NCBI GenBank assembly: GCA_017948555.1
Contig: JAFMYY010000022.1
Span: 43,006-107,005, forward strand
From: Cesiribacteraceae bacterium YIM B00369
Lineage (GTDB): Bacteria > Bacteroidota > Bacteroidia > Cytophagales > Cyclobacteriaceae
Length of the DNA: 64,000 nt
Direction: 5' to 3'
Part shown: positions 52,256-63,726 of the stretch, one piece after another
How the letters are laid out: each line of letters begins with the position of its first letter
How positions within the stretch are numbered: position 1 is the first letter of the stretch
Program-made: the position numbers and the translations under genes
The notes under the pieces: generated by a model
What the model was told of the DNA's origin: nothing
Seen by the model: only the letters and a program-made list of their open reading frames with translations
Database searches by the model: none

Positions 52256-52756
52256 TTACTTCTGCGCTTTTTCATTTACGCTGTCGATCGCAATTTTATT
52301 CAGTTTCTCGTCAGCAGCCTTTTCTTCATTCAGGGTTTCTTCCAGAAGACCAGCTACTTCGTCAAGTCCTAAACGCTTTGCGTAATGGTGAGCAGTACCA
52401 TAGCCTGCCATTTCATAATGCTCCACGCGCTGAGCTGCGGCAATTAAGCCGGCATCTTTCACGTCGCTTTCGGCATCCATCTTCAGCATTTCTTCACCTT
52501 CTTTAATAAGGCCTGCCATTGCTTCGCACTTCTCGCCTTTTACGCTTATGTTGCAAATTTCGCCAATTTTTTCAATGCGCTCTTTTTGCTTTTTGGTTTC
52601 TTCCAGGTGAGACTCAAAAGCTTTTTTCAATTTGCTGTCACTTGCTTTTTCAGCCATTTTTGGAAGAGCTTCAGACAACTGGGTTTCAGCGCTATATAGG
52701 TCTTTTATTTCGTGTTCAAAAAGATCTTTTAATGATTTTAATTTATCACTAGCCAT
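52256..52756 (-). CDS. YciE/YciF-family ferritin-like stress protein (DUF892)
   Basis: LKDLFEHEIKDLYSAETQ...EHYEMAGYGT pattern of DUF892. Confidence 0.8.
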   Translation of the reverse strand: MASDKLKSLKDLFEHEIKDLYSAETQLSEALPKMAEKASDSKLKKAFESHLEETKKQKERIEKIGEICNISVKGEKCEAMAGLIKEGEEMLKMDAESDVKDAGLIAAAQRVEHYEMAGYGTAHHYAKRLGLDEVAGLLEETLNEEKAADEKLNKIAIDSVNEKAQK

Positions 52757-52967: not shown

Positions 52968-55900
52968 CTATATCCCGCGCACCTCATCCACAGAGGGTGT
53001 TTCTCCGTTCAAACGATACAACTGCTTATCTGACAAGGCACTCCTGATCCCGTATAAGGCGTGGCTTACATTCTCAATCTGGGCCAGCATCTGCGCCATA
53101 TTATTTCCCCCGAAAGCTTTTGCCTTCTGGCTTTTTTGAAAGATGGCCTTAATTTCTTCCCAGCGCATTTTTTCCTTTTCACTTATTCTGCCTGTCAGCT
53201 CTTTAAACTTCAACAGGTTGGCCTCTGCTCCGGTGGTAAGGGTTTGGGATTCCCCTTCATAATGCGAAAGAATGAGCGTTTCCAGCTCCTTTTCATTCAT
53301 TACCGGCATTACCTTTTCGGCCAGCTTGCTCATGTTTCTGTACGATCCCTGCAGCTTAAAAGGAGGCTCTGTCCGGTATTCCTCTGCCTGGGCGGCAGAA
53401 GCGATATAGGCAAGGTTCACCTCCAGCACCACATCCCTGATCTTCAACAGCTTTTCTAAAATACTTATGTACTCATTAATTTCCTGCGGAGAATGATTGG
53501 CCTCAAATTCCATTCCTTCGCGCGAACCGGTTTCAGCAACCTTTACAAGGGTAATTACATCCTTCTGGCTCTTCCCTGCCAGCCTGGCAAGGGTGGCATT
53601 CGAGGTAAGGCAGTTTTCAATATAGCTCAGCTTAAACACCTCTGCACTGTCGCCAATAATATCGCCCAAGTTATAAATATCGGCACGGTTGGCAAGCATA
53701 TCCGGTATCTGAAACTTATCACCGCTTTCGGTGTAGGGATTACCCGCCATTACCACGCACACTTTCCTGCCACGGAAATCGTAGGTTTTGCTGCGGCCTT
53801 TATAAATACCTTCTATCTTCCGCTGCCCATCGCAAAGGGAGATAAACTTCTGCAGGAATTCCGGATTACAGTGCTGGATATCGTCCAGGTAGATCATCAC
53901 ATTGTCGCCCATTTCAAAAGCCAGATTCAGCTTTTCCAGCTCCTGCCTGGCACCTGAGTTTTTGGCATCCGCCGGATCCACCGCCGTTACATCGTGCCCT
54001 ATGGCGGGTCCGTTGATCTTCATAAACACCAGCCCCAGCCTGTCGGCTATGTACTCCATAAGAGTGGTTTTACCATAGCCCGGAGGGGAGATCAGCAGCA
54101 ACATACCCATAAGGTCTGTGCGCTTGTTTTCGCCTGCTGTACCCATTTGCTTGGCCAGGTTATTGCCTATAAGCGGAAGGTACACCTTGTCTATTAACTG
54201 ATTACGAACAAAGCTGCTCATTACCCGTGGCTTAAACTCCTCCAGCCGCAGGTCCTGCGCAAAACGGCTGGTAAGTTCTTTCTTCAGCGCTGTAAATGCC
54301 AGGTTTGCCGGCACGGTTACCTGCTCAAAGTGCTGCAGGCGGGCCATAAACTCATTAAAGCGAAGTGTATACTGTTTATTCTCTATCAGGCCATGGGTTC
54401 CCTGCAAGCCTTTTAGCTCCTCCTGCAAATGAGCCTGCATTACCTGCCCATCCTGGTAACCGCCCGCCAGCAGCCACACCGCTGTTTCATCTATCCACCC
54501 CAGCTGCTCAGGATGCCCTGCCGCATAGGCACGCAGCCAGCTTCTAGTCAGCTTATATGCATGCACAGGACTGTCTTTCAAGGCCTTAACAGACTGTTCA
54601 TACTCCTTCCAGGCTCCTTTTTTTTCCAGGTGTTTCGCAAAGGCCTGGTATAAAGTGCCCGCCGCTCCTGCCACCACAAAAGCCGCTGATTTTGCAAGGG
54701 AGTGGAACAGAAAGGCTGCCGCTTCCGCTGCTAACTCCGGAGAGAAGAGGCGGGTATCGGCTATATATTCCAGAATTGCTGTTTTCAGCTCTTCCTGAAT
54801 TCCTTCAAACTCTTTTGTTTCCGGAAAAACCTGCAGAATATAACCGGCACCTTTTAACTGGTGCTCCAGACTCTTTTTCTGCTCCGGATGGGCAAAATGC
54901 TGCCAGAACATCATGGCACAGGAGCGGGCTTCGCTGCCGTAGCGCAAAAGCCCTGCTGTTTGCCTGATCTGCAACAGCACCTGCAGGATAAGGGTGGCAT
55001 CTGCGTCGTGCACTCCTTTAACATAACCTTCGTTATAGCGGGTGGCCATAAACTGCTGTACATACTGCCTCAGCTCATCGGCAGTCTTTTTTTGCAGATC
55101 AGCCAGGGAAGTCTCTCCCCCGGCTGCCGTTTCCGCAGCCTGTAATATTTTATAGGCAAGGTACTCTCCCCTGTATACCTGCTGATTTTCAGAGATCAGG
55201 GACTGATCCCACACCCCTCGCAGACTGTTGAGGGAAGGATCATTTATTTCCTCAAAAAACCCGGTTCCTGCCAGGTGAAAGTATAGTGCATCATTACGTT
55301 GCACCAGACTCAGCGCCAGTGGCTGTGTATTTACAGTAAACAGATGTGTACCGAAGCGAATAGTGTTTTCACCGGCAACGTACAGCTCATTTTTATCTTT
55401 CAGCTGCCGTACGGCATCTTCCTTAATGGTCTTTAGCTTGCTCTGTATATCATCGGCTTTTACCGAATCGCCCAGCTCCTTCAGTTCCTGTACAAGGCTG
55501 CGGAGCTTTTCTATCATCAGGTCGGCTGCAAAATACCCGTTTATCTCACTTACTTCCGTAAAGCGGACAAGGCGGTTTTGCACCGCTTTAAGTATGCGCT
55601 CCGCTGCCTGCTGCAGGGTGTTAGCCCGCTTGTTACGCGCCTCGGTAAGGCTTAGTTTGCGCGATTCAAAGGCATTATAAATCTCATCTCTTTTTATGGA
55701 AAGCTGGTCTACATACTCATCAAACTCAGAGAAGCGCCCTTCCAGCTCTTCCAGCTGCACCATCAGTTTGGTAAGGTATTCATCTGTTTTTTCAGGAGTA
55801 TCGCAAACATCCAGGTAGTTAATTACACCCTGATCCACCAGCTTAATCTGTGCATTGAACTCCGCCTTGCCTTCCACCAGCATCAGCTCCCTGCGCTTCC

Positions 55901-57896
55901 GCTTTATACCTGCTTTCAGCTGATTAAAGTGGGCATAAATAGCCGATATATTATCGATGATACGGGTGGTTTCTGTAGCATCCTCAATCTTAAGGTTACT
56001 TACAATTTCAATGAGCATTTCCAGCTCTCCCGAAAGTTTGGTCGCCTGCTCATCCAGCTCATTAATGCGGCTCACTTTGGCCGCTTCCTCAATGGCTTTT
56101 TCAAGCTCTTTTACCTTTTCCTGGTAAGGCTTCAGCGCATCATCGCGCAGCAGGAATTTCACACAGTTTGCCGACACCTCCCGGCTGAACTTCTGCAGCT
56201 CTTTTTCATACTGCCCGATAGCTTCAGTATCGGCATAGCGCAAATCCTTCAGGGAAATTACCGCTCCGCTCAGCCTCCTCAGCTCTGCCAGAGATGCCAC
56301 AAAGTCCAGTATATGTTCGGCTTTCCTGCGCCTGATCTTCTTTATCAGCTCGTCTGCCTCTCCTAAAACCTGCCCCGTCTGCCGTTTTGTATTTTCCCGT
56401 ATGCTGTTTACTTTTTCAAACTCATCCACCGCAGCGGAGGCGGTATGCCTGATATCCCGAAGGGGCTCCTCCAAGGCGGCATCCTGGTGCTTGAGCCAAT
56501 GGTAATGGTCGAGCAGAGCAGTACTGTTACTTATAAGGTCGTGGTAAAGGTCAGCATAGGAATCGCCTTTATTGATGAGGTTCAGCAGCTCCCTCGACTC
56601 GGCAATGGCGCGCACAATTTCGCGGTTGCCTATTTTATAGAGGTAAGAGTCGCTGGTTTGCGCCAGCTGGAAGTTTGTGCCGGTAAAAGGGGTTTGCCAG
56701 ATCTGCACAGCATGGTGCTTTGCCGCTTCCTTGTCGCCGCGGAAAAAGCACATTTCACCGTTTTCGAAAATTGAATAGCCGTGGCAATATATAGGAGTGC
56801 CAATTTGCTGCTCAATCAGATTATACGACAGCAACAGGTAAAGCCCCTTCACACGGTTATAAAATACATACAGGTAATCCTCCCCGTTAGGGCTGGCAAT
56901 GCGCTTTTCAAACAACAGGCTACTGGTAACTTGCTCAAAAAGCTTGTATTCGCCTGTTTGCAGGTAGTATCCGTTCGGAAATAAAACTCCCTGATCGTCG
57001 GGAAGCAGCACACAGGCATCCTTAAGGGCATCGACCCGGCGAACAGCCTGAATTTTTGCATTATACACCAGGTAACGATAAGCCTCTTCCTGGTAAGGCT
57101 TTATTTTCAGCAGCACCAGGTTGCCTACAAAGGCATACTGAATATCGGCATCGTCGAGGGTCTGGTCTTTATTCTCCACTGCTTCGGAATAAATCCCCTG
57201 CCCTTCCTGAGTATTGTCTTCTATCTTGATAGTAAGGTCGCCGCCCACTGTTTCCACAAAAAGCCGGTCTTCGATACTAATGTGGGGGTAAGTTCCCTGC
57301 CGGTGCATATCGCGGGTAGCCCTTTTCCAGCGGAATTCATGCTGATCAGGAAAACCAAACTCATGTTCACTGCGGTTGTCGAGATAGCGAAGCCGGCTTC
57401 CTTCCACCAGCCACTTAAATACTTTTATATCAGTGAGGCTTTTGCCAATCCGGAAAACCATGTAAAGATGCGGCCCCACAAGAGCGAACTTTACAAAGTG
57501 GGTATCTTTATAATACTTGTATAGCTTCTGAAAATCATCCTGAAAGGTTTTGTCGTCCAGCAGCCCATATTCTTCCTGGAAAAATGTATGGTCTTCATAC
57601 CTGTAAATACTGAAAACATCGGGCAGCTCTGCCTGTGCTTTAAGGCCCAGGTGTACGTTGTAACCGAATATAAAGCTGTTAGCTACCGGAATCATATCCT
57701 GCGGCACGCAATTGTGCTCCGTGCTGATGCGCTCCGTAGCAAGCAATTTGCTCTCAATGGAGCCGAACACTTCCTTACGGCTGTTATTCAGCCCTTCAAT
57801 TTTTGCAGCCAGTTCCTTCGCAGCTTTTTGAAGCCTGCCCTGAAGAATTTCGTAAGTACCTGTCTCCAGCTGTTGTTTATTTATATCTTCACTCAT
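52968..57896 (-). CDS. giant (1642 aa) coiled-coil protein with a single C-terminal MoxR/AAA_5-type AAA+ ATPase domain
   Basis: Residues about 1-430 beta-rich, about 430-800 coiled coil, about 800-1230 alpha-helical. ATPase at about 1250-1450: Walker A ISPPGYGKTT, Walker B and arginine region MIYLDDIQHCNPEFLQKFISLCDGQRKIEG (MoxR DEINRA...LLEAM equivalent), sensor region VMAGNPYTESGDKFQIPDMLANRAD (MoxR ATQNP...LDRF equivalent). No second P-loop. Confidence 0.85.
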   Translation of the reverse strand: MSEDINKQQLETGTYEILQGRLQKAAKELAAKIEGLNNSRKEVFGSIESKLLATERISTEHNCVPQDMIPVANSFIFGYNVHLGLKAQAELPDVFSIYRYEDHTFFQEEYGLLDDKTFQDDFQKLYKYYKDTHFVKFALVGPHLYMVFRIGKSLTDIKVFKWLVEGSRLRYLDNRSEHEFGFPDQHEFRWKRATRDMHRQGTYPHISIEDRLFVETVGGDLTIKIEDNTQEGQGIYSEAVENKDQTLDDADIQYAFVGNLVLLKIKPYQEEAYRYLVYNAKIQAVRRVDALKDACVLLPDDQGVLFPNGYYLQTGEYKLFEQVTSSLLFEKRIASPNGEDYLYVFYNRVKGLYLLLSYNLIEQQIGTPIYCHGYSIFENGEMCFFRGDKEAAKHHAVQIWQTPFTGTNFQLAQTSDSYLYKIGNREIVRAIAESRELLNLINKGDSYADLYHDLISNSTALLDHYHWLKHQDAALEEPLRDIRHTASAAVDEFEKVNSIRENTKRQTGQVLGEADELIKKIRRRKAEHILDFVASLAELRRLSGAVISLKDLRYADTEAIGQYEKELQKFSREVSANCVKFLLRDDALKPYQEKVKELEKAIEEAAKVSRINELDEQATKLSGELEMLIEIVSNLKIEDATETTRIIDNISAIYAHFNQLKAGIKRKRRELMLVEGKAEFNAQIKLVDQGVINYLDVCDTPEKTDEYLTKLMVQLEELEGRFSEFDEYVDQLSIKRDEIYNAFESRKLSLTEARNKRANTLQQAAERILKAVQNRLVRFTEVSEINGYFAADLMIEKLRSLVQELKELGDSVKADDIQSKLKTIKEDAVRQLKDKNELYVAGENTIRFGTHLFTVNTQPLALSLVQRNDALYFHLAGTGFFEEINDPSLNSLRGVWDQSLISENQQVYRGEYLAYKILQAAETAAGGETSLADLQKKTADELRQYVQQFMATRYNEGYVKGVHDADATLILQVLLQIRQTAGLLRYGSEARSCAMMFWQHFAHPEQKKSLEHQLKGAGYILQVFPETKEFEGIQEELKTAILEYIADTRLFSPELAAEAAAFLFHSLAKSAAFVVAGAAGTLYQAFAKHLEKKGAWKEYEQSVKALKDSPVHAYKLTRSWLRAYAAGHPEQLGWIDETAVWLLAGGYQDGQVMQAHLQEELKGLQGTHGLIENKQYTLRFNEFMARLQHFEQVTVPANLAFTALKKELTSRFAQDLRLEEFKPRVMSSFVRNQLIDKVYLPLIGNNLAKQMGTAGENKRTDLMGMLLLISPPGYGKTTLMEYIADRLGLVFMKINGPAIGHDVTAVDPADAKNSGARQELEKLNLAFEMGDNVMIYLDDIQHCNPEFLQKFISLCDGQRKIEGIYKGRSKTYDFRGRKVCVVMAGNPYTESGDKFQIPDMLANRADIYNLGDIIGDSAEVFKLSYIENCLTSNATLARLAGKSQKDVITLVKVAETGSREGMEFEANHSPQEINEYISILEKLLKIRDVVLEVNLAYIASAAQAEEYRTEPPFKLQGSYRNMSKLAEKVMPVMNEKELETLILSHYEGESQTLTTGAEANLLKFKELTGRISEKEKMRWEEIKAIFQKSQKAKAFGGNNMAQMLAQIENVSHALYGIRSALSDKQLYRLNGETPSVDEVRGI

Positions 57897-58210
57897 CAGA
57901 TGCTTTTTTTAGAATAATCGGCTGTTCCTAAAGCCAATATTATAAAGACCAGGAGGCTGCCTGCCGCAAAAGCAAGCGCAGCCCAAATAATCTGTCCTGT
58001 CATTAACCCTGCTACTCCGCAAATGGCCTGTAAAACAGCCATTACCATCAGGTTTGTTCCTGCCCAGCGGGCAAGTCCTGGCTTATCGGTGGTGGCTTCG
58101 GCATTATAGACTACCAAAACCTCCAGCTTTTGCCGGTACCGCACAATACAGCCTGCCCATAAAACCAGGCAGCTTACCAGCAACAAAAAGATTAATAATG
58201 CTGTGTGCAT
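57896..58210 (-). CDS. 3-TM mini-membrane protein translationally coupled to the giant ATPase gene
   Basis: 104 aa with three hydrophobic helices; its stop TGA overlaps the ATG of the downstream giant gene (TGATG). Confidence 0.55.
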   Translation of the reverse strand: MHTALLIFLLLVSCLVLWAGCIVRYRQKLEVLVVYNAEATTDKPGLARWAGTNLMVMAVLQAICGVAGLMTGQIIWAALAFAAGSLLVFIILALGTADYSKKSI

Positions 58211-58249
58211 GAAAAAATTGTTTTTCTTTAGATGTTAGATATGAAACAA

Positions 58250-58410
58250 GATTCAAGAACCAGGAGTCAAGAGTCAAGACAATAGACTTTAGATAATGGA
58301 CAAAGAAGGAGTAGTGAGTGAGTAAATGAATGACAGACTGAAAATGAAATTAAAAAAAACAAGTCCAATTTTCAATTCTATCATTCTATCATTCCATCAC
58401 CCACCCACTC
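58250..58410. repeat. degenerate heptanucleotide tandem-repeat element (copy B)
   Basis: GAGTCAA GAGTCAA GACAATA GACTTTA GATAATG GACAAAG AAGGAGT AGTGAGT GAGTAAA TGAATGA CAGACTG AAAATGA ... then ATTCTATC ATTCTATC ATTCCATC ACCCACCCACTCC. Confidence 0.6.
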
Positions 58411-58417
58411 CTTAAAT

Positions 58418-60559
58418 TTACTTCTCCAGCATTTCAATCGTTTTGTCCGAAACGCCTATGGTAGTGGCAAGGCTGCTCAGGTTTTGCAGACTCAGACGGG
58501 TTTGCTCATTAGTGGTGCTGTTGATCATTTTCACCAGCAGTGCTGAGATGCTCAGGTTGCGGATATCTTCAGTTGTAAGGCCGAATTTATCTACAAAATC
58601 CTTCAGCTGGCTTTTAAAATCAGTACCTCCGTTTGGACTGAAGAAGGTATTCTTCATATCCGTGAGAGTAGGGCTTTTGCTTACCATACCGTCTATGGCT
58701 TTTCCTTTGGCTATGGAACCAACAATCTGGTTAAAGAACATGGTTTCCCCACCTATTATATCAATATTAGATGCCTTCAGTGCTTCTGCAATAACAAGGG
58801 CCTGGGCGTCGGCAATATCCTTCTGGATTCCGATATTGGCCATTTCAATTTCCTTGTCCTTGTTCAGGCGCAGCTTAAACTCTTCGTGGTCTTTGCCTGG
58901 TCCGTCGAGCTTGCTCATGGCAGCTGCTTTCTCGCCTATTCCTTTTGCTTCGGCAGCAAACTTCTGCTCCATTACACGTGCTTCGGCAGCACCCTGTATT
59001 TCAATAGCTTCGGCTTTGGCACGGATAATTGCTGCTTCAGCTTCACCCAGTTTTACATCGGCATCGGCTTTGGCAAGGCCTTTCACCCTGATTGCCTTAG
59101 CTTCTGCATCTGCTGTATCTTCAATAACACTGGCTTCGGCTTCACCCTGCTTGCTTAAGGCGGCAGCTTTGGCTTCCATTACCTGTGCTTCACTTATACC
59201 AAGTGCCGCTTCTTTCGCAGCTTCGGCCTGTGCCATAATCTTGATGGCTTCAGCTTTCATATCGGCACTGTTGCGCTCGGCTTCTGCATCTATCATCATT
59301 TGCTTCGAGCGGAATTCAGCAGCATCACGTGCAGCCTCTGCAGACTTGATCTGTTTCACCAGGCTCTCCTCAGCTTCCCTTTCGGCATTAATAATGGCCA
59401 CCCGCTTCACGCGCTCAGCCTCAGCATGTGCTTTGGTGTCTTTAATGCGCTCTTCCTCTTCAACCGTTCCTTTCTCCACAATAACCCGCTCACGAATTAC
59501 TTCCTGTATATTCTTACGTTCTTCTTCCAGTGCTTTCTCTTTCTCGATCTGAGCAAGTGAAACTATTCTGTCGCGCTCATTTGCTTCGAGTCCGCGGGCC
59601 TGCTCCACGCGCTCCTGCTCAATGGCATCGGTTTTCTCCTTATTGCGCATGGCCACCAGTATCTGGCGTTCCTTATTCTGCTCCGCTATTTCAATTTGTT
59701 CCTCTGCAGCTATGCGTGCATTCTCAGACTTCAGGCGCTCCTCAGAACGAACCTTTTCAATTTCAGCAGCCTCTTTTGCTTTAATGCTCTGGATTTCGCG
59801 GTACTGCTTTTCTTCACTTTCGGCCAGCTGGCGGTCAAGTGCCAGTATGGTTTCACGGGCTTCCACATCCTGCTTCTTCAGCGTTTTTTCCTTCTCCCGC
59901 TCAATCAGGTTCGCTTCCATTTTCTGCTTCGCCGTAAGATCTATGATCTTTTTCATACCTTCGGAGTCCAGAATATTGCTTTCGTTCAGGAACTCCAGCG
60001 GCGTTTGCTCCAGGTAATCAATGGCGCAGTCATCGAGAATATAACCGTTCAGGTCAGTTCCTATAATCTGCAGAATTTCGTCTTTAAACTCCTTACGGTT
60101 GGTATATAAGTCAACAAAATCAAAGCCTTTCCCTACCGCTTTCAGTGCTTCTGAAAACTTGGCATCGAACAGCAATTCCATTTGCTGAGGATCGGAAGCA
60201 CGCTTACAGCCTATACTCTGAGCTACCGTCATTACATCCTCTTTCGTCTGGCTTACCCGCACGAAAAAGGTTACTTTAATGTCTGCCCGCATATTGTCGC
60301 GGCAAATAAGACCTTCTTTACCTGTGCGGCTGATCATAATGGTTTTTACAGTAATATCCATTACTTCGAGCTGCTGAATTACAGGAATGACCATAATTCC
60401 GCTAAAAGATACCTTTGGCCCGCCCATGCCGGTTATTACCAGCGCCTGACCCTGCTCCGCCTTCCGGTAGAGCTTAGCGATAAATATCGCTATGGCAAAC
60501 AGGACCCCTATAAGGATCAGTCCGCCCATTAACAATGCATTTCCTGCTATGCTTTCCAT
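58418..60559 (-). CDS. flotillin-family SPFH protein (YqiK-like) with long Ala/Glu/Lys coiled-coil region
   Basis: N-terminal TM, SPFH/band-7 domain, about 300-aa EA-repeat coiled coil, flotillin C-terminal domain. Confidence 0.9.
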   Translation of the reverse strand: MESIAGNALLMGGLILIGVLFAIAIFIAKLYRKAEQGQALVITGMGGPKVSFSGIMVIPVIQQLEVMDITVKTIMISRTGKEGLICRDNMRADIKVTFFVRVSQTKEDVMTVAQSIGCKRASDPQQMELLFDAKFSEALKAVGKGFDFVDLYTNRKEFKDEILQIIGTDLNGYILDDCAIDYLEQTPLEFLNESNILDSEGMKKIIDLTAKQKMEANLIEREKEKTLKKQDVEARETILALDRQLAESEEKQYREIQSIKAKEAAEIEKVRSEERLKSENARIAAEEQIEIAEQNKERQILVAMRNKEKTDAIEQERVEQARGLEANERDRIVSLAQIEKEKALEEERKNIQEVIRERVIVEKGTVEEEERIKDTKAHAEAERVKRVAIINAEREAEESLVKQIKSAEAARDAAEFRSKQMMIDAEAERNSADMKAEAIKIMAQAEAAKEAALGISEAQVMEAKAAALSKQGEAEASVIEDTADAEAKAIRVKGLAKADADVKLGEAEAAIIRAKAEAIEIQGAAEARVMEQKFAAEAKGIGEKAAAMSKLDGPGKDHEEFKLRLNKDKEIEMANIGIQKDIADAQALVIAEALKASNIDIIGGETMFFNQIVGSIAKGKAIDGMVSKSPTLTDMKNTFFSPNGGTDFKSQLKDFVDKFGLTTEDIRNLSISALLVKMINSTTNEQTRLSLQNLSSLATTIGVSDKTIEMLEK

Positions 60560-60600
60560 AATTAAAGGTTTATGATGAATTGGTTAAAGATTTTGTTATT

Positions 60601-61230
60601 TTATAAGATATAAGGCTCAACAAGGTAACAGCGCTTATCCGGCTGGTACTCCAGCACCAGGGCTGTGTCGCCGTTTTTTACAGCAGTACCGGCTTTACTG
60701 CTGACCATTAATATAATGGGGGCACCATTACCTTTTTGCATTACCACTGCCTGCCCTATGCGCCCCTCCTGCAGATTGCTTTGCAGGGTGCATATTTTCC
60801 CTATTACACTATAGTTCTTTTCTTCCTCCATTTTATCGAAAAGTTTAACAAATGGAAGGGTGAGAAATTTGGCAGCCATCAAAGAAATGAAGAATCCTGC
60901 GCCCAGCGTCAGCAGGCCGGGCAGGAGGCTATAAATGCCCAGCAGGTCGTTTACCAGGATGCAGAAAAGCCAGAGCGGGAGCACCATGAAGGTAAGAAAT
61001 ACCATAAGCGGTATCCGGCCAAGGTTGAAAAAGCGCAATATATTATTTAGCCATTCAAGCCCGCCTTCCGGATGGCCGTCCATATCATGATCCAGGTCTA
61101 CATCCACATCGAACAGATCAAGATCAACAGCACCTATTAATACTGTGCACCAGTAGAGGATAATGGCTATGAGTAGTAAGGTGGGGATTATATTTGCCCC
61201 TGCAATGGCAAAATTCAACAATTCAATCAT
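60601..61230 (-). CDS. YqiJ/NfeD-like membrane protein (OB-fold C-terminus)
   Basis: 209 aa: TM helices, acidic DLDLFDVDVDLDHDMD linker, C-terminal NfeD-type OB fold; 41 bp upstream of the flotillin gene (yqiJK arrangement). Confidence 0.8.
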   Translation of the reverse strand: MIELLNFAIAGANIIPTLLLIAIILYWCTVLIGAVDLDLFDVDVDLDHDMDGHPEGGLEWLNNILRFFNLGRIPLMVFLTFMVLPLWLFCILVNDLLGIYSLLPGLLTLGAGFFISLMAAKFLTLPFVKLFDKMEEEKNYSVIGKICTLQSNLQEGRIGQAVVMQKGNGAPIILMVSSKAGTAVKNGDTALVLEYQPDKRCYLVEPYIL

Positions 61231-61401
61231 GAGTCAGGTGGTTATAATTATCGATTGAAATCTTTTCAGGCGGAGTCAGTTCCGGGAAAGGGACAGAGAC
61301 AGCACAACCCTTCCCGCATCCCGGAAACCAACCTTTTTTTACAATCCTCCTCCGGGGCTATGCGGATACTGGCATTAAATTATTCTGCCAGGCAGAGGGA
61401 A

Positions 61402-62127
61402 TTATTTACCTGCTTCGCTTCCACCTATTCCAAGCCGGGACTTCAGCGCTGCCAGCTCAGCGGATGTTTTAGATGAAGCAGAAGTGTTTTCCAGTACTTT
61501 ATCAATTTCCTGATCGATGCTGCGGCTTTCATTGGCAATTTCTCCGTAAGATTCTGCCAGCGCTTCCTGCTGCGCCACCTTGTCTTTCATACGCTCCAGC
61601 ATCGATACAGTACTGCTGCTGTCAATCTGGGCAAGCTGCTTATTCAGTCGCTGCGTGGCATCGCTCACCTTAACACGGGCCTTGAGGGTTTTAAGCTCAT
61701 TTTCCCATTTGCTGATGTTACTCTTAATGGTTTTAATATTCCCGTCAAGCTGCGACACGCTTTGCTCAAACTTCTCACGTTCCTCTTTTGCCCGTTGCGC
61801 CTGCTGTATACTATTTTCCTTTTTTAATAAAGCCTCACCGGCAAGGCGGTCGGCCTCCTCAGAGGCAACTTCTCCTGCCTGCGCTTTTTTCAAAAGCATT
61901 ACTGCCTTATGCTCATAATCACCTGCAATATTGGTATAAGTCTCGACATCATTCCTGGCGCGGATGGCAAGTGCTTTAACCTCTGCCAGCGCATGCAGGC
62001 TTTTATCCAGTTGTTCCTTCATATCGCGGATTCCCTGCTCTGTAAGCCTGATAGGATTCTCCAGCTGGTCTACAGCAGAATGTGCTTCTGACTGGCCGAT
62101 TTTAAAAAGTCTTGTGAAAATATTCAT
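61402..62127 (-). CDS. pspA: PspA/IM30 (phage-shock protein A, ESCRT-III-like)
   Basis: MNIFTRLFKIGQSEAHSAVDQLENP N-terminus and full-length coiled-coil pattern of PspA/Vipp1. The start is chosen at the internal Met matching the family N-terminus. Confidence 0.85.
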   Translation of the reverse strand: MNIFTRLFKIGQSEAHSAVDQLENPIRLTEQGIRDMKEQLDKSLHALAEVKALAIRARNDVETYTNIAGDYEHKAVMLLKKAQAGEVASEEADRLAGEALLKKENSIQQAQRAKEEREKFEQSVSQLDGNIKTIKSNISKWENELKTLKARVKVSDATQRLNKQLAQIDSSSTVSMLERMKDKVAQQEALAESYGEIANESRSIDQEIDKVLENTSASSKTSAELAALKSRLGIGGSEAGK

Positions 62128-62165
62128 GTTGATTAATTTTAAAGTGAACATTAAAGTTTAAACAC

Positions 62166-62182
62166 TGCTCATAAAATGAGCA
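62166..62182. promoter_or_regulatory. perfect palindrome TGCTCAT-AAA-ATGAGCA upstream of pspA
   Basis: 17-bp inverted repeat about 40-55 bp upstream of the pspA start codon (minus strand); candidate operator. Confidence 0.35.
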
Positions 62183-62284
62183 CCCGTTGAGAATGAAGGA
62201 TGTGCTTTATAGCAGCCATAATGTTAAACTTGCCTGGTTCTTCCTTTGACCGGCGCAACTTCTCCGGTCAGCATTATACCTGCC

Positions 62285-62680
62285 TTACTGGTGTGCAAAC
62301 CGCAGCAGCTCGTCGGAGTATTCGCTCAGCAAAAGCCCCAGAGCATTAAAGGTTCCCTCCATTTCGTTTAAATCGAGGTTTTCCAGCATCAGGGTATTCC
62401 TGAACAGCACTTTCGTTCCGGAATCATCCACCACGAACGCTCCTGCTATCATATCCCTGTTTTTCTGAAGCAGGCTTTTGTACAACTCTATGCTTTCCTG
62501 CCCTATTTCAAAGATAAACTGTTCAATAATCAGGATAGGGTCCGCACAGCCAATTACCAGGTTACGTATCCCCATCTCTTCATTATCCACCACAAACAGT
62601 CCGTCATCACCGTTCACATGCCGGATGGTACATCCCATTTCCAGCAAAAACTCTTTAACTTTATCAAAATAGCAGTTCAT
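62285..62680 (-). CDS. YbjN-domain protein
   Basis: 131 aa; KVKEFLLEMGCTI...ILIIEQFIF pattern consistent with the YbjN (T3SS-chaperone-like) fold. Confidence 0.65.
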   Translation of the reverse strand: MNCYFDKVKEFLLEMGCTIRHVNGDDGLFVVDNEEMGIRNLVIGCADPILIIEQFIFEIGQESIELYKSLLQKNRDMIAGAFVVDDSGTKVLFRNTLMLENLDLNEMEGTFNALGLLLSEYSDELLRFAHQ

Positions 62681-62827
62681 ATGGGCAAAAGTTATACTTT
62701 AGCAATCGGTTAATATCCAAATGTAAAAAATATTATCATTTGAATATTATGTTTTTTGTTATTCTTATATATTATGGCGGCTTTTTTATAGTTTTTGGCT
62801 TCATTCTCAATGGTGTTTACGTAAATA

Positions 62828-62837
62828 TATAAAAAAC
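62828..62837. promoter_or_regulatory. perfect 10-bp palindrome TTTACGTAAA in the divergent control region
   Basis: Lies between the divergent ybjN-like and XRE/S24 repressor genes, about 20-50 bp upstream of the repressor start. Confidence 0.35.
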
Positions 62838-62856
62838 AGTTGCTAAAAAAAATAGA

Positions 62857-63726
62857 ATGCTCAAAAAAAGAGCAAAAATTTTTCATATGTCTTTTATAGG
62901 AAAAAATATCAAAAAGATCAGGACTGTAAAAAAGCTCTCCCAGGCCCAGTTTGCAGAACTTTTCAACCTGGCAAGGCCAAGTGTGGGAGCGTATGAGGAA
63001 GGAAGGACAGAGCCTAAAATTGACACCATTATTGCCATGGCCAACCATTTTGGCCTTTCTATAGATGCGCTGCTACGAAAAGAGCTAACGGTAAATGAGC
63101 TTTACAGTCTCGACATACTTAAAGGAGAGTTTGACCCTACCCAACTGCCCCCTGCACTGGGCAAAAGCCAGAAACAATCCCTCACGCCTGTGCAGGAGCC
63201 TTTAAAATCACCGGCCACTGATACAGGCGTTCCATTGGTTACCCGCGATTTAAACCTGGAGTATATTGTAAACCTGGGTAATATGGATTTTATTGGCACA
63301 CTCCCTAAAATATTACTGCCCCACCAGTTAAAAAGCAACCAGCGGGCATTTGCCCACAGCGGGCAGGAGATGTACCACAATGAATGCGGAATACGCCAGG
63401 ATGATATTCTGCTGTGCAGCTTCCGGCAGAAGGACCAACCGGCAAAGCTAAAGAGCGGAAATGTGTATGTGGTGGTAACCCCGAGACGAATCGTTACCCG
63501 CAGGCTCGCCGGTGCCAGTAATAATAGCATTGAGCTGAAAGCTGACAATCCGGCTTTCGACAACACCAGCCTTCCGGCAGAGGAAATCCTGGAGATCTGG
63601 GAAGCCATCGGCTTCTGGAGCGAATACCTTGCCCCTCCCATGCACATGGAAAACCGTATGTTCCAGCTGGAAAACCGCATGCAGGAACTGGAGGAGAAGC
63701 TTCTTAAAATCAGCCGTGAGTTGTGA
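62857..63726 (+). CDS. XRE-family HTH repressor with LexA/cI-like S24 domain and C-terminal leucine-zipper-like tail
   Basis: HTH (GKNIKKIRTVKKLSQAQFAELFNLARPSVGAYEEGRTEPKIDTIIAMA). The C-terminal region aligns by eye with the LexA catalytic domain (GVPLVTRD..., DDILLCSFRQKDQPAKLKSGNVYVVVTPRRIVTRRL). The Ser of G-x-S-M appears replaced (SGQEM) and Lys by Arg (VTRRL). Final 30 aa is a heptad coiled coil (MFQLENRMQELEEKLLKI). Confidence 0.7.
   Translation: MLKKRAKIFHMSFIGKNIKKIRTVKKLSQAQFAELFNLARPSVGAYEEGRTEPKIDTIIAMANHFGLSIDALLRKELTVNELYSLDILKGEFDPTQLPPALGKSQKQSLTPVQEPLKSPATDTGVPLVTRDLNLEYIVNLGNMDFIGTLPKILLPHQLKSNQRAFAHSGQEMYHNECGIRQDDILLCSFRQKDQPAKLKSGNVYVVVTPRRIVTRRLAGASNNSIELKADNPAFDNTSLPAEEILEIWEAIGFWSEYLAPPMHMENRMFQLENRMQELEEKLLKISREL

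Follow-up and report, generated by a model that had tools for sequence, protein, structure and literature searches.

The closest described relatives of the locus considered here are bacterial operons in which PspA is encoded together with a CesT/Tir-like protein. This CesT/Tir-PspA dyad was defined by Ravi et al. (2024, mSystems; bioRxiv 2020; PMC11237479), who describe in section 19 of their paper operons that combine the dyad with three further genes. In their example from Dokdonia donghaensis (Table S3, ANH61663.1), a divergent gene for a cHTH-plus-protease regulator accompanies genes for CesT/Tir, PspA, a YqiJ/YuaF protein, a Band-7/flotillin protein and an ATPase, the last consisting of a beta-propeller, a coiled coil and an AAA+ module (PMC11237479). 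Abbreviated operons without PspA are more widespread, and ESCRT-like analogues and ATP-dependent membrane remodelling have already been proposed for these systems (PMC11237479). According to a 2025 review, a Vps4-like ATPase "appears absent in bacteria", which leaves open by what means PspA/Vipp1 polymers and flotillin assemblies undergo turnover there (PMC7619361). Here we analyse a gene cluster encoding PspA, a flotillin and a giant AAA+ protein in a stretch of 64,000 nucleotides (nt) from Cesiribacteraceae bacterium YIM B00369 (contig JAFMYY010000022.1, positions 43,006 to 107,005), referred to below as the window, in whose own numbering coordinates are given.

The window cluster is almost certainly a member of this published operon class. 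It has the CesT/Tir and PspA pair, the flotillin, the YqiJ protein, the propeller/coiled-coil/AAA+ protein and the divergent cHTH-plus-S24 regulator, and its genes, their order and orientation, the divergent regulator and the phylum are all the same as in Dokdonia. There is no essential difference between the two, the window copy having an extra DUF3784-like mini-gene in the slot between the flotillin and ATPase genes. An earlier note on this DNA had presented the cluster as a candidate novel system, a claim that falls because the identical architecture, divergent regulator included, is already in print (PMC11237479). The gene-neighbourhood class found here had thus been published before, and so had the interpretation offered for it. 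What the present analysis contributes is refinement: a flotillin that is the obligate partner of the ATPase, a predicted AAA+ clade other than that of Vps4 with a DD Walker B motif, a probably dead S24 site and a variable gene slot. The AAA+ clade, the DD Walker B and the loss of the regulator's catalytic dyad are not reported in PMC11237479.

The evidence on partners comes from gene neighbourhoods. A scan of one genome per GTDB species gave 547 loci encoding relatives of the giant protein. The best 80 of these are all from Bacteroidota (55-67% identity to the giant), and linkage was counted by tblastn with the window proteins in the 65 whose upstream sequence reached 7 kb or more. The closest homologues in the GTDB species set come from metagenome-assembled genomes of Roseivirgaceae (67% identity, none higher), and metagenome proteins reach 82-89%, which points to a Cytophagales-like lineage with few sampled genomes as the source. 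Flotillin and YqiJ adjoin the ATPase in 63/65 Bacteroidota loci (97%), with flotillin directly upstream of the giant gene in 63/65. PspA is found beside the ATPase in 45/65 (69%), CesT adjoins pspA in 42/65, and the XRE-S24 regulator is present in 44/65, divergent every time and upstream of cesT. The complete seven-gene order occurs in 42/65 loci, in agreement with the view of the earlier note that the genes form a conserved, co-oriented, membrane-associated module and no chance juxtaposition. YqiJ, flotillin and ATPase occur without the add-on in 18 loci, for example in Pontibacter, and PspA was absent within about 9 kb of the ATPase in 18 loci. Conservation of the neighbourhood across Bacteroidota, which the earlier note had proposed to examine, therefore holds for flotillin and YqiJ, and less so for PspA.

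The same core extends beyond Bacteroidota. A tblastn search of plasmid records returned 13 full-length homologues of the giant (89-99% coverage, 39-57% identity) from Hymenobacter, Streptomyces, Nonomuraea, Deinococcus, Pseudomonas, Proteus, Vibrio, Photobacterium and Halomonas. Seven loci, from Pseudomonas, Streptomyces, Deinococcus, Proteus, Vibrio, Nonomuraea and Halomonas, formed the non-Bacteroidota set. In all seven, which span Proteobacteria, Actinobacteria and Deinococcota and have 39-43% ATPase identity, the ATPase gene is immediately preceded by a flotillin gene, annotated as "flotillin family protein" or "SPFH domain-containing protein", and this in turn is preceded by a gene for a small membrane protein, recognised as YqiJ by tblastn in 4/7. 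The giant gene is thus not a stand-alone gene without conserved linkage, the outcome that would have refuted the earlier note; it is linked to flotillin in 63/65 Bacteroidota loci and in 7/7 loci from other phyla. A PspA hidden Markov model built from 47 sequences found no PspA in six of the seven non-Bacteroidota loci; its single match, which served as positive control (5.7e-10), was in the Pseudomonas plasmid pQBR103. On this plasmid (Pseudomonas fluorescens SBW25, 84437-97641; locus L081), a YjfI/DUF2170-PspA dyad and polyamine genes are joined to YqiJ-SPFH-ATPase, the attached block reading YjfI-PspA-rhomboid-DUF2491-DUF350-DUF1190-glutathionylspermidine-synthase. The link to PspA thus recurs, since the triad has here acquired a PspA dyad of another type.

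Together, these counts define YqiJ-flotillin-ATPase as the invariant core, and PspA-CesT, with the regulator in Bacteroidota, as a facultative module, of which two or more forms have been joined to the core. As the invariant neighbours, flotillin and YqiJ are therefore the first partners to consider for the ATPase, with PspA-CesT optional. pQBR103 offers a second, independent PspA-triad linkage in a genetically tractable host.

The counts also bear on another reading, in which the giant is the missing bacterial counterpart of Vps4 and recycles PspA polymers, flotillin and YqiJ being accessory. PspA and CesT do lie in the same co-oriented cluster as the ATPase in 45/65 Bacteroidota loci, and the pQBR103 arrangement shows a different PspA dyad on the triad. 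Reviews know of no Vps4-like partner of bacterial PspA (PMC7619361), and ESCRT-like analogues have been suggested (PMC11237479). However, the absence of a local PspA from 18/65 Bacteroidota loci and from 6/7 loci of other phyla, where PspA could still be encoded elsewhere in the genome, is at odds with the giant as a dedicated PspA partner, the role for which the earlier note had put it forward; its obligate neighbour is flotillin. The fold of the ATPase, described below, also argues against this reading.

The giant protein (52968-57896, minus strand, 1642 aa), which the earlier note could place in no family, has Pfam matches to DUF3686 (PF12458, "ATPase involved in DNA repair"; E 4e-192, residues 28-466), to DUF7902 (PF25472, residues 586-670) and to AAA/AAA_5 (residues 1266-1389; AAA_5 27 bits against a cut-off of 22). 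It is related to more than 5,400 database proteins, mostly named "DNA repair ATPase" and some "MoxR-like ATPase". Among 50%-identity cluster representatives, DUF3686 has 730 representatives, with full-length members of 1600-1900 aa, and no architecture other than this giant one is evident among them. In an AlphaFold2 model of residues 1-1180 built with 52 homologues (mean predicted local distance difference test score, pLDDT, 83.5), a helix at residues 11-44 is followed by a beta-propeller of about 26 strands (residues ~50-401, nt 56694-57749), long helices and coiled-coil bundles (418-838), a small beta unit (862-883) and a helical domain (909-1144). Foldseek comparison of this part with the PDB returned beta-propellers only (E 1e-5 to 1e-3, 6-12% identity), among them those of Elp1, IFT-A, CyRPA, prolyl oligopeptidase, the clathrin terminal domain and thiocyanate dehydrogenase, and no specific relative. 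This search, which the earlier note had proposed, agrees with the published description of the ATPase as a propeller protein (PMC11237479).

The C-terminal AAA+ module spans residues ~1265-1456 (nt 53529-54104). In an AlphaFold2 model of residues 1121-1642 (pLDDT 78.4), a beta-hairpin separates the strand of Walker B from that of sensor 1. The best Foldseek matches of the module in the PDB are NorQ, CbbQ, MCM, Lon, RuvB and ClpA/X (E 2.6e-7 to 1e-5, 11-18% identity), with NorQ at the top (E 2.6e-7) and the NorQ/CbbQ matches reaching to E 3e-6 with target-normalised TM-scores of 0.56-0.60. Neither Vps4 nor katanin nor spastin is among the 50 best matches, Pfam finds no MIT domain in the giant, and the DSSP trace of the AAA+ model has no clear helix-2 insert. 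On the modelled fold, the module belongs to the pre-sensor-1-hairpin group, nearest to the MoxR proteins NorQ/CbbQ and to RuvB and Lon, and is not Vps4-like. Assignment to the MoxR clade itself is loose, because Lon, RuvB and MCM score nearly equally.

A sequence search of the PDB with the giant gave a match, RuvB included, confined to about 45 residues around Walker A (E ~1e-3), which is uninformative on family. This weak P-loop similarity to RuvB and the inherited database names are what speaks for a giant that acts as a DNA repair ATPase. The name is probably wrong, as we find no support for it here: no DNA-binding or nuclease domain was found, the likeness to RuvB does not extend beyond those 45 or so residues, the invariant neighbours are membrane proteins, and literature searches yield no paper behind the name. 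A role in DNA repair can hardly be credited.

The modelled fold also bears on how far the analogy with Vps4 goes. With a pre-sensor-1 hairpin and matches to NorQ, MCM, Lon and RuvB, the module is outside the classical clade to which Vps4 belongs, no Vps4-type protein is among the best 50 structures, and in place of an MIT domain the N-terminus has a helix and a beta-propeller. The analogy thus does not amount to homology, and Vps4-like mechanics are not expected, because the module belongs to another AAA+ group and has a DD Walker B. Taken with the patchy presence of PspA, these features make it unlikely that the giant is the bacterial Vps4 counterpart.

The motifs of the module are Walker A PPGYGKTT (K1276), Walker B YLDDIQH (D1338 and D1339; nt 53880-53885), sensor 1 AGNPYTE (N1386) and PDMLANRAD (R1404), and none of the four differs between Bacteroidota, Proteobacteria, Actinobacteria and Deinococcota. 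Conservation along the giant is highest in the AAA+ region (70-81% column identity across eight distant sequences), followed by residues 201-350 of the propeller. The invariance of the motifs and the conservation of the region indicate that an active nucleotide site is under selection. The GNP of sensor 1 is like the NP motif of MoxR proteins.

MoxR-type ATPases are usually maturation chaperones that work with VWA-domain partners. The giant could, in the same manner, be an assembly or maturation chaperone for client membrane proteins in a flotillin microdomain and not a remodeller of scaffolds. NorQ and CbbQ at the head of the Foldseek matches and an AAA_5 score above the Pfam cut-off are consistent with this, as is the existence of SPFH platforms for AAA+ machines such as HflK/C-FtsH. 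However, the operon has no VWA partner and no conserved gene that is clearly a client, MoxR proteins share only 12-17% identity with the module, the helix-2 insert is missing from the DSSP trace, and the huge propeller and coiled-coil N-terminal part is unlike that of any MoxR protein. The "MoxR-type" label given in the earlier note is therefore roughly right for the AAA_5 match and the best structures, but no VWA partner accompanies it and the clade is loosely drawn; we regard the chaperone role as improbable and continue to favour remodelling of a flotillin scaffold.

The partner proteins have the features expected of the class. The window genes were defined from an open reading frame list and a Pfam scan, and all eight genes that had been described lie where they were placed, with the domains named. 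The CesT_Tir_1/YbjN-like protein (62285-62680, minus strand, 131 aa; PF22550, E 1e-55) is a small chaperone-fold protein that forms a dyad with PspA. PspA/IM30 itself (61402-62151, minus strand, 249 aa; PF04012, E 2.7e-41, 142 bits against a cut-off of 33.9) covers positions 1-217 of the 220 of the PspA_IM30 profile, and judged by where the profile match begins it probably starts at 62127 (MNIFTRLF), not at 62151. The YqiJ/YuaF-like, NfeD-type membrane protein (60601-61230, minus strand, 209 aa) has an N-terminal transmembrane helix, an Asp-rich loop, more transmembrane helices and a C-terminal beta-rich domain. Its YqiJ_N match (E 2.5e-3) is below the Pfam cut-off, but positional orthologues pass it (L030 with 34 bits, L049 with 23.4 bits). 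The Band_7/flotillin protein (58418-60559, minus strand, 713 aa; PF01145, E 2.7e-8), an SPFH protein, has a transmembrane segment at its N-terminus, then the Band_7 domain, a long coiled coil rich in Glu and Ala, and a C-terminal region.

At the head of the cluster, as the earlier note had it, lies the divergent XRE/S24 gene (62857-63726, plus strand, 289 aa), with both domains above their Pfam cut-offs (HTH_3, E 1e-11; Peptidase_S24, 29.2 bits against 23.3). Its start is probably the ATG at 62887 (MSFIGKNI), where homologues begin, and not 62857. The protein has an XRE-type helix-turn-helix (HTH) at residues 18-71, an S24-like beta-barrel at residues 162-247 (nt ~63355-63600) and a conserved C-terminal helix; in a PDB sequence search its HTH alone was matched. 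We compared 46 regulator homologues with E. coli LexA by MAFFT, Smith-Waterman and hhalign (probability 81%). The position of LexA K156 is Arg in 30-42 of the 46, depending on the method, and that of S119 is variable (Tyr in the window) or Glu/Asp, with GxSM replaced by GxE/DM in 38/46. Self-cleavage of the LexA/cI type is therefore unlikely, because the Ser-Lys dyad appears to be missing from the S24 domain, which is probably a pseudo-protease serving as a non-catalytic sensor or dimerisation module. Hence the earlier label of a cI/LexA-like repressor stands for the HTH and the S24 fold but not for the catalytic dyad, and induction of the SOS/RecA type is not expected from a regulator with an apparently dead protease site.

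The intergenic region between the regulator and cesT (62681-62886) holds candidate promoter/operator elements. A palindrome, TGCTC-N7-GAGCA (62858-62874), contains TTTTGAGC, which is found beside the regulator start in 31/42 homologous intergenic regions, and a second inverted repeat, TAATATCCAAATG-N13-CATTTGAATATTA, lies at 62711-62749. The TTTTGAGC palindrome and the second repeat are possible operators or Bacteroidota -7 promoter elements. A sigma-70 promoter scan gave no more matches than shuffled controls, with a model that does not apply to the promoters of Bacteroidota.

Between the flotillin and ATPase genes, gene content varies. This space ranges from 86 to 3097 bp across Bacteroidota loci (57896-58417 in the window), and its contents differ by lineage; in loci L004, L006, L008, L034, L037, L045 and L069 they are DMP19-like, DUF3800, DUF2321 zinc-ribbon, DUF559/REase-like endonuclease and larger DUF3784 proteins. 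The space is an insertion hot-spot. In the window it is occupied by a 104-aa mini-protein with three hydrophobic segments (57896-58210, minus strand; DUF3784, 22.5 bits, below cut-off), whose stop codon and the giant's start codon share one base (TGATG), in line with the coupling noted earlier. An orthologue of 104 aa in the metagenome contigs L088 and L089 is annotated as PF12650 DUF3784. In L001 and L012, the nearest genome relatives with 67% identity over the giant, there is no mini-protein gene and the gap is about 100 nt, and tblastn with the mini-protein against the related loci gave no match, after which the slot was inspected reading frame by reading frame. The mini-protein gene is real, but it is an occupant of the variable slot confined to close relatives and not a component of the system. 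The DUF892/YciE-like, ferritin-like gene beyond the giant (52256-52756, minus strand, 166 aa; E 3e-55), said to follow immediately, is present but lies 211 nt downstream. It is kept in 1/80 related loci and in the near-identical contigs L088 and L089, and is a neighbour, not a component.

The changing small genes of the slot (DMP19-like, DUF3800, DUF559 endonuclease-like), the copies on megaplasmids and the likeness of the regulator's HTH to those of the defence-system regulators RmrA and CapH could suggest a membrane-targeting anti-phage module, acting by abortive infection under a phage-repressor-like regulator. Against this role, which the earlier note had raised, PADLOC-DB 2.0 gives generic coiled-coil, P-loop (E 4.5e-3) and HTH matches and none that is specific to a core protein, tblastn of 50,697 phage records returned no homologue, and the cluster is without a toxin or nuclease effector. 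Furthermore, synteny is steady across Bacteroidota families and the neighbours of the cluster are housekeeping genes. The GC content of the cluster (0.46-0.47) is close to that of the window (~0.44), so there is no signal of horizontal acquisition, and the S24 domain without its catalytic dyad would provide no SOS-type trigger. An anti-phage function is accordingly very unlikely.

For the system as a whole, we consider the best explanation to be membership of the published operon class combined with flotillin-centred, ATP-driven remodelling, a joint reading to which we lean slightly. The proposed membrane-remodelling mechanism, taken by itself, is tentative. Its core engine would be the triad, in which the giant ATPase is combined with YqiJ as NfeD-type membrane partner and with flotillin as an SPFH scaffold on the cytoplasmic side of the inner membrane. 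The ATPase probably oligomerises through its C-terminal AAA+ module into a ring from which the long helical arms would project, and the beta-propeller at each tip would dock on the scaffold. ATP turnover, presumably under membrane or envelope stress, could then assemble, reshape or dismantle flotillin assemblies and, in loci that have the add-on, PspA polymers as well. In this lineage the CesT/Tir-like chaperone may hold PspA in a deliverable form, and the XRE regulator, through its apparently dead S24-fold sensor domain, may control the divergent promoter. There are precedents for parts of such an arrangement. SPFH cages enclose the AAA+ protease FtsH (PMC13220708), and, according to a study cited in PMC10936438, the SPFH protein YdjI recruits PspA in B. 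subtilis. The most specific version, in which the DUF3686 ATPase is a hexameric, propeller-armed remodeller of flotillin cages with or without PspA polymers and a non-homologous analogue of Vps4, is a doubtful one, less probable than the general mechanism.

Several observations weigh against flotillin-centred remodelling. Walker B is DD instead of DE in every homologue examined across four phyla, and such a motif could mean slow or switch-like hydrolysis rather than a motor. The ATPase stands alone in 2/65 Bacteroidota loci (L047 and L075). Inside the window cluster there are intergenic gaps of 133-207 nt, which do not favour co-transcription; the spacing between cesT and pspA, on the same strand, is 133 nt. 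No cluster gene has a VWA domain in the Pfam scan and none is annotated in the related loci, and literature searches on the DUF3686 family turned up no experimental work on the ATPase.

This operon class, which has been in print since 2020, offers the best genomic lead on how bacterial scaffolds are turned over. If its most specific version, the hexameric remodeller, is correct, no ATPase would have been shown before the giant to work on an SPFH scaffold. Print already hints at such a scaffold remodeller, so that only experimental proof of it would be new.

Comparison with other known systems shows which parts of the arrangement are shared. With LexA, lambda cI and UmuD the window regulator has in common an HTH followed by an S24-fold domain, but Arg stands where these proteins have the catalytic Lys, and the Ser is not conserved. 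The MoxR proteins (NorQ, CbbQ, RavA) provide the closest solved folds to the ATPase module, which also has an AAA_5 match, yet the window protein has no VWA partner, shares 12-17% identity with them and differs in its DD Walker B and giant N-terminal extension. As in the ESCRT-III/Vps4 systems of archaea and eukaryotes, a protein of the ESCRT-III superfamily, PspA, is encoded near an AAA+ ATPase, and nucleotide-driven remodelling of a polymer is conceivable here too. Unlike Vps4, the window ATPase is non-classical, lacks an MIT domain, is encoded at a distance of three genes from PspA and in many loci has no PspA near it. The pairing of an NfeD-type membrane protein with an SPFH/flotillin protein is the same as in E. 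coli YqiJ-YqiK and B. subtilis YuaF-FloT, although yqiJK and yuaF-floT come without such an ATPase (PMC2636767). Finally, HflK/C-FtsH couples an SPFH scaffold to an AAA+ machine, as we propose for the window; in contrast to FtsH, the AAA+ protein of the window is soluble, has no protease domain and carries a beta-propeller and about 800 residues of helical bundles.

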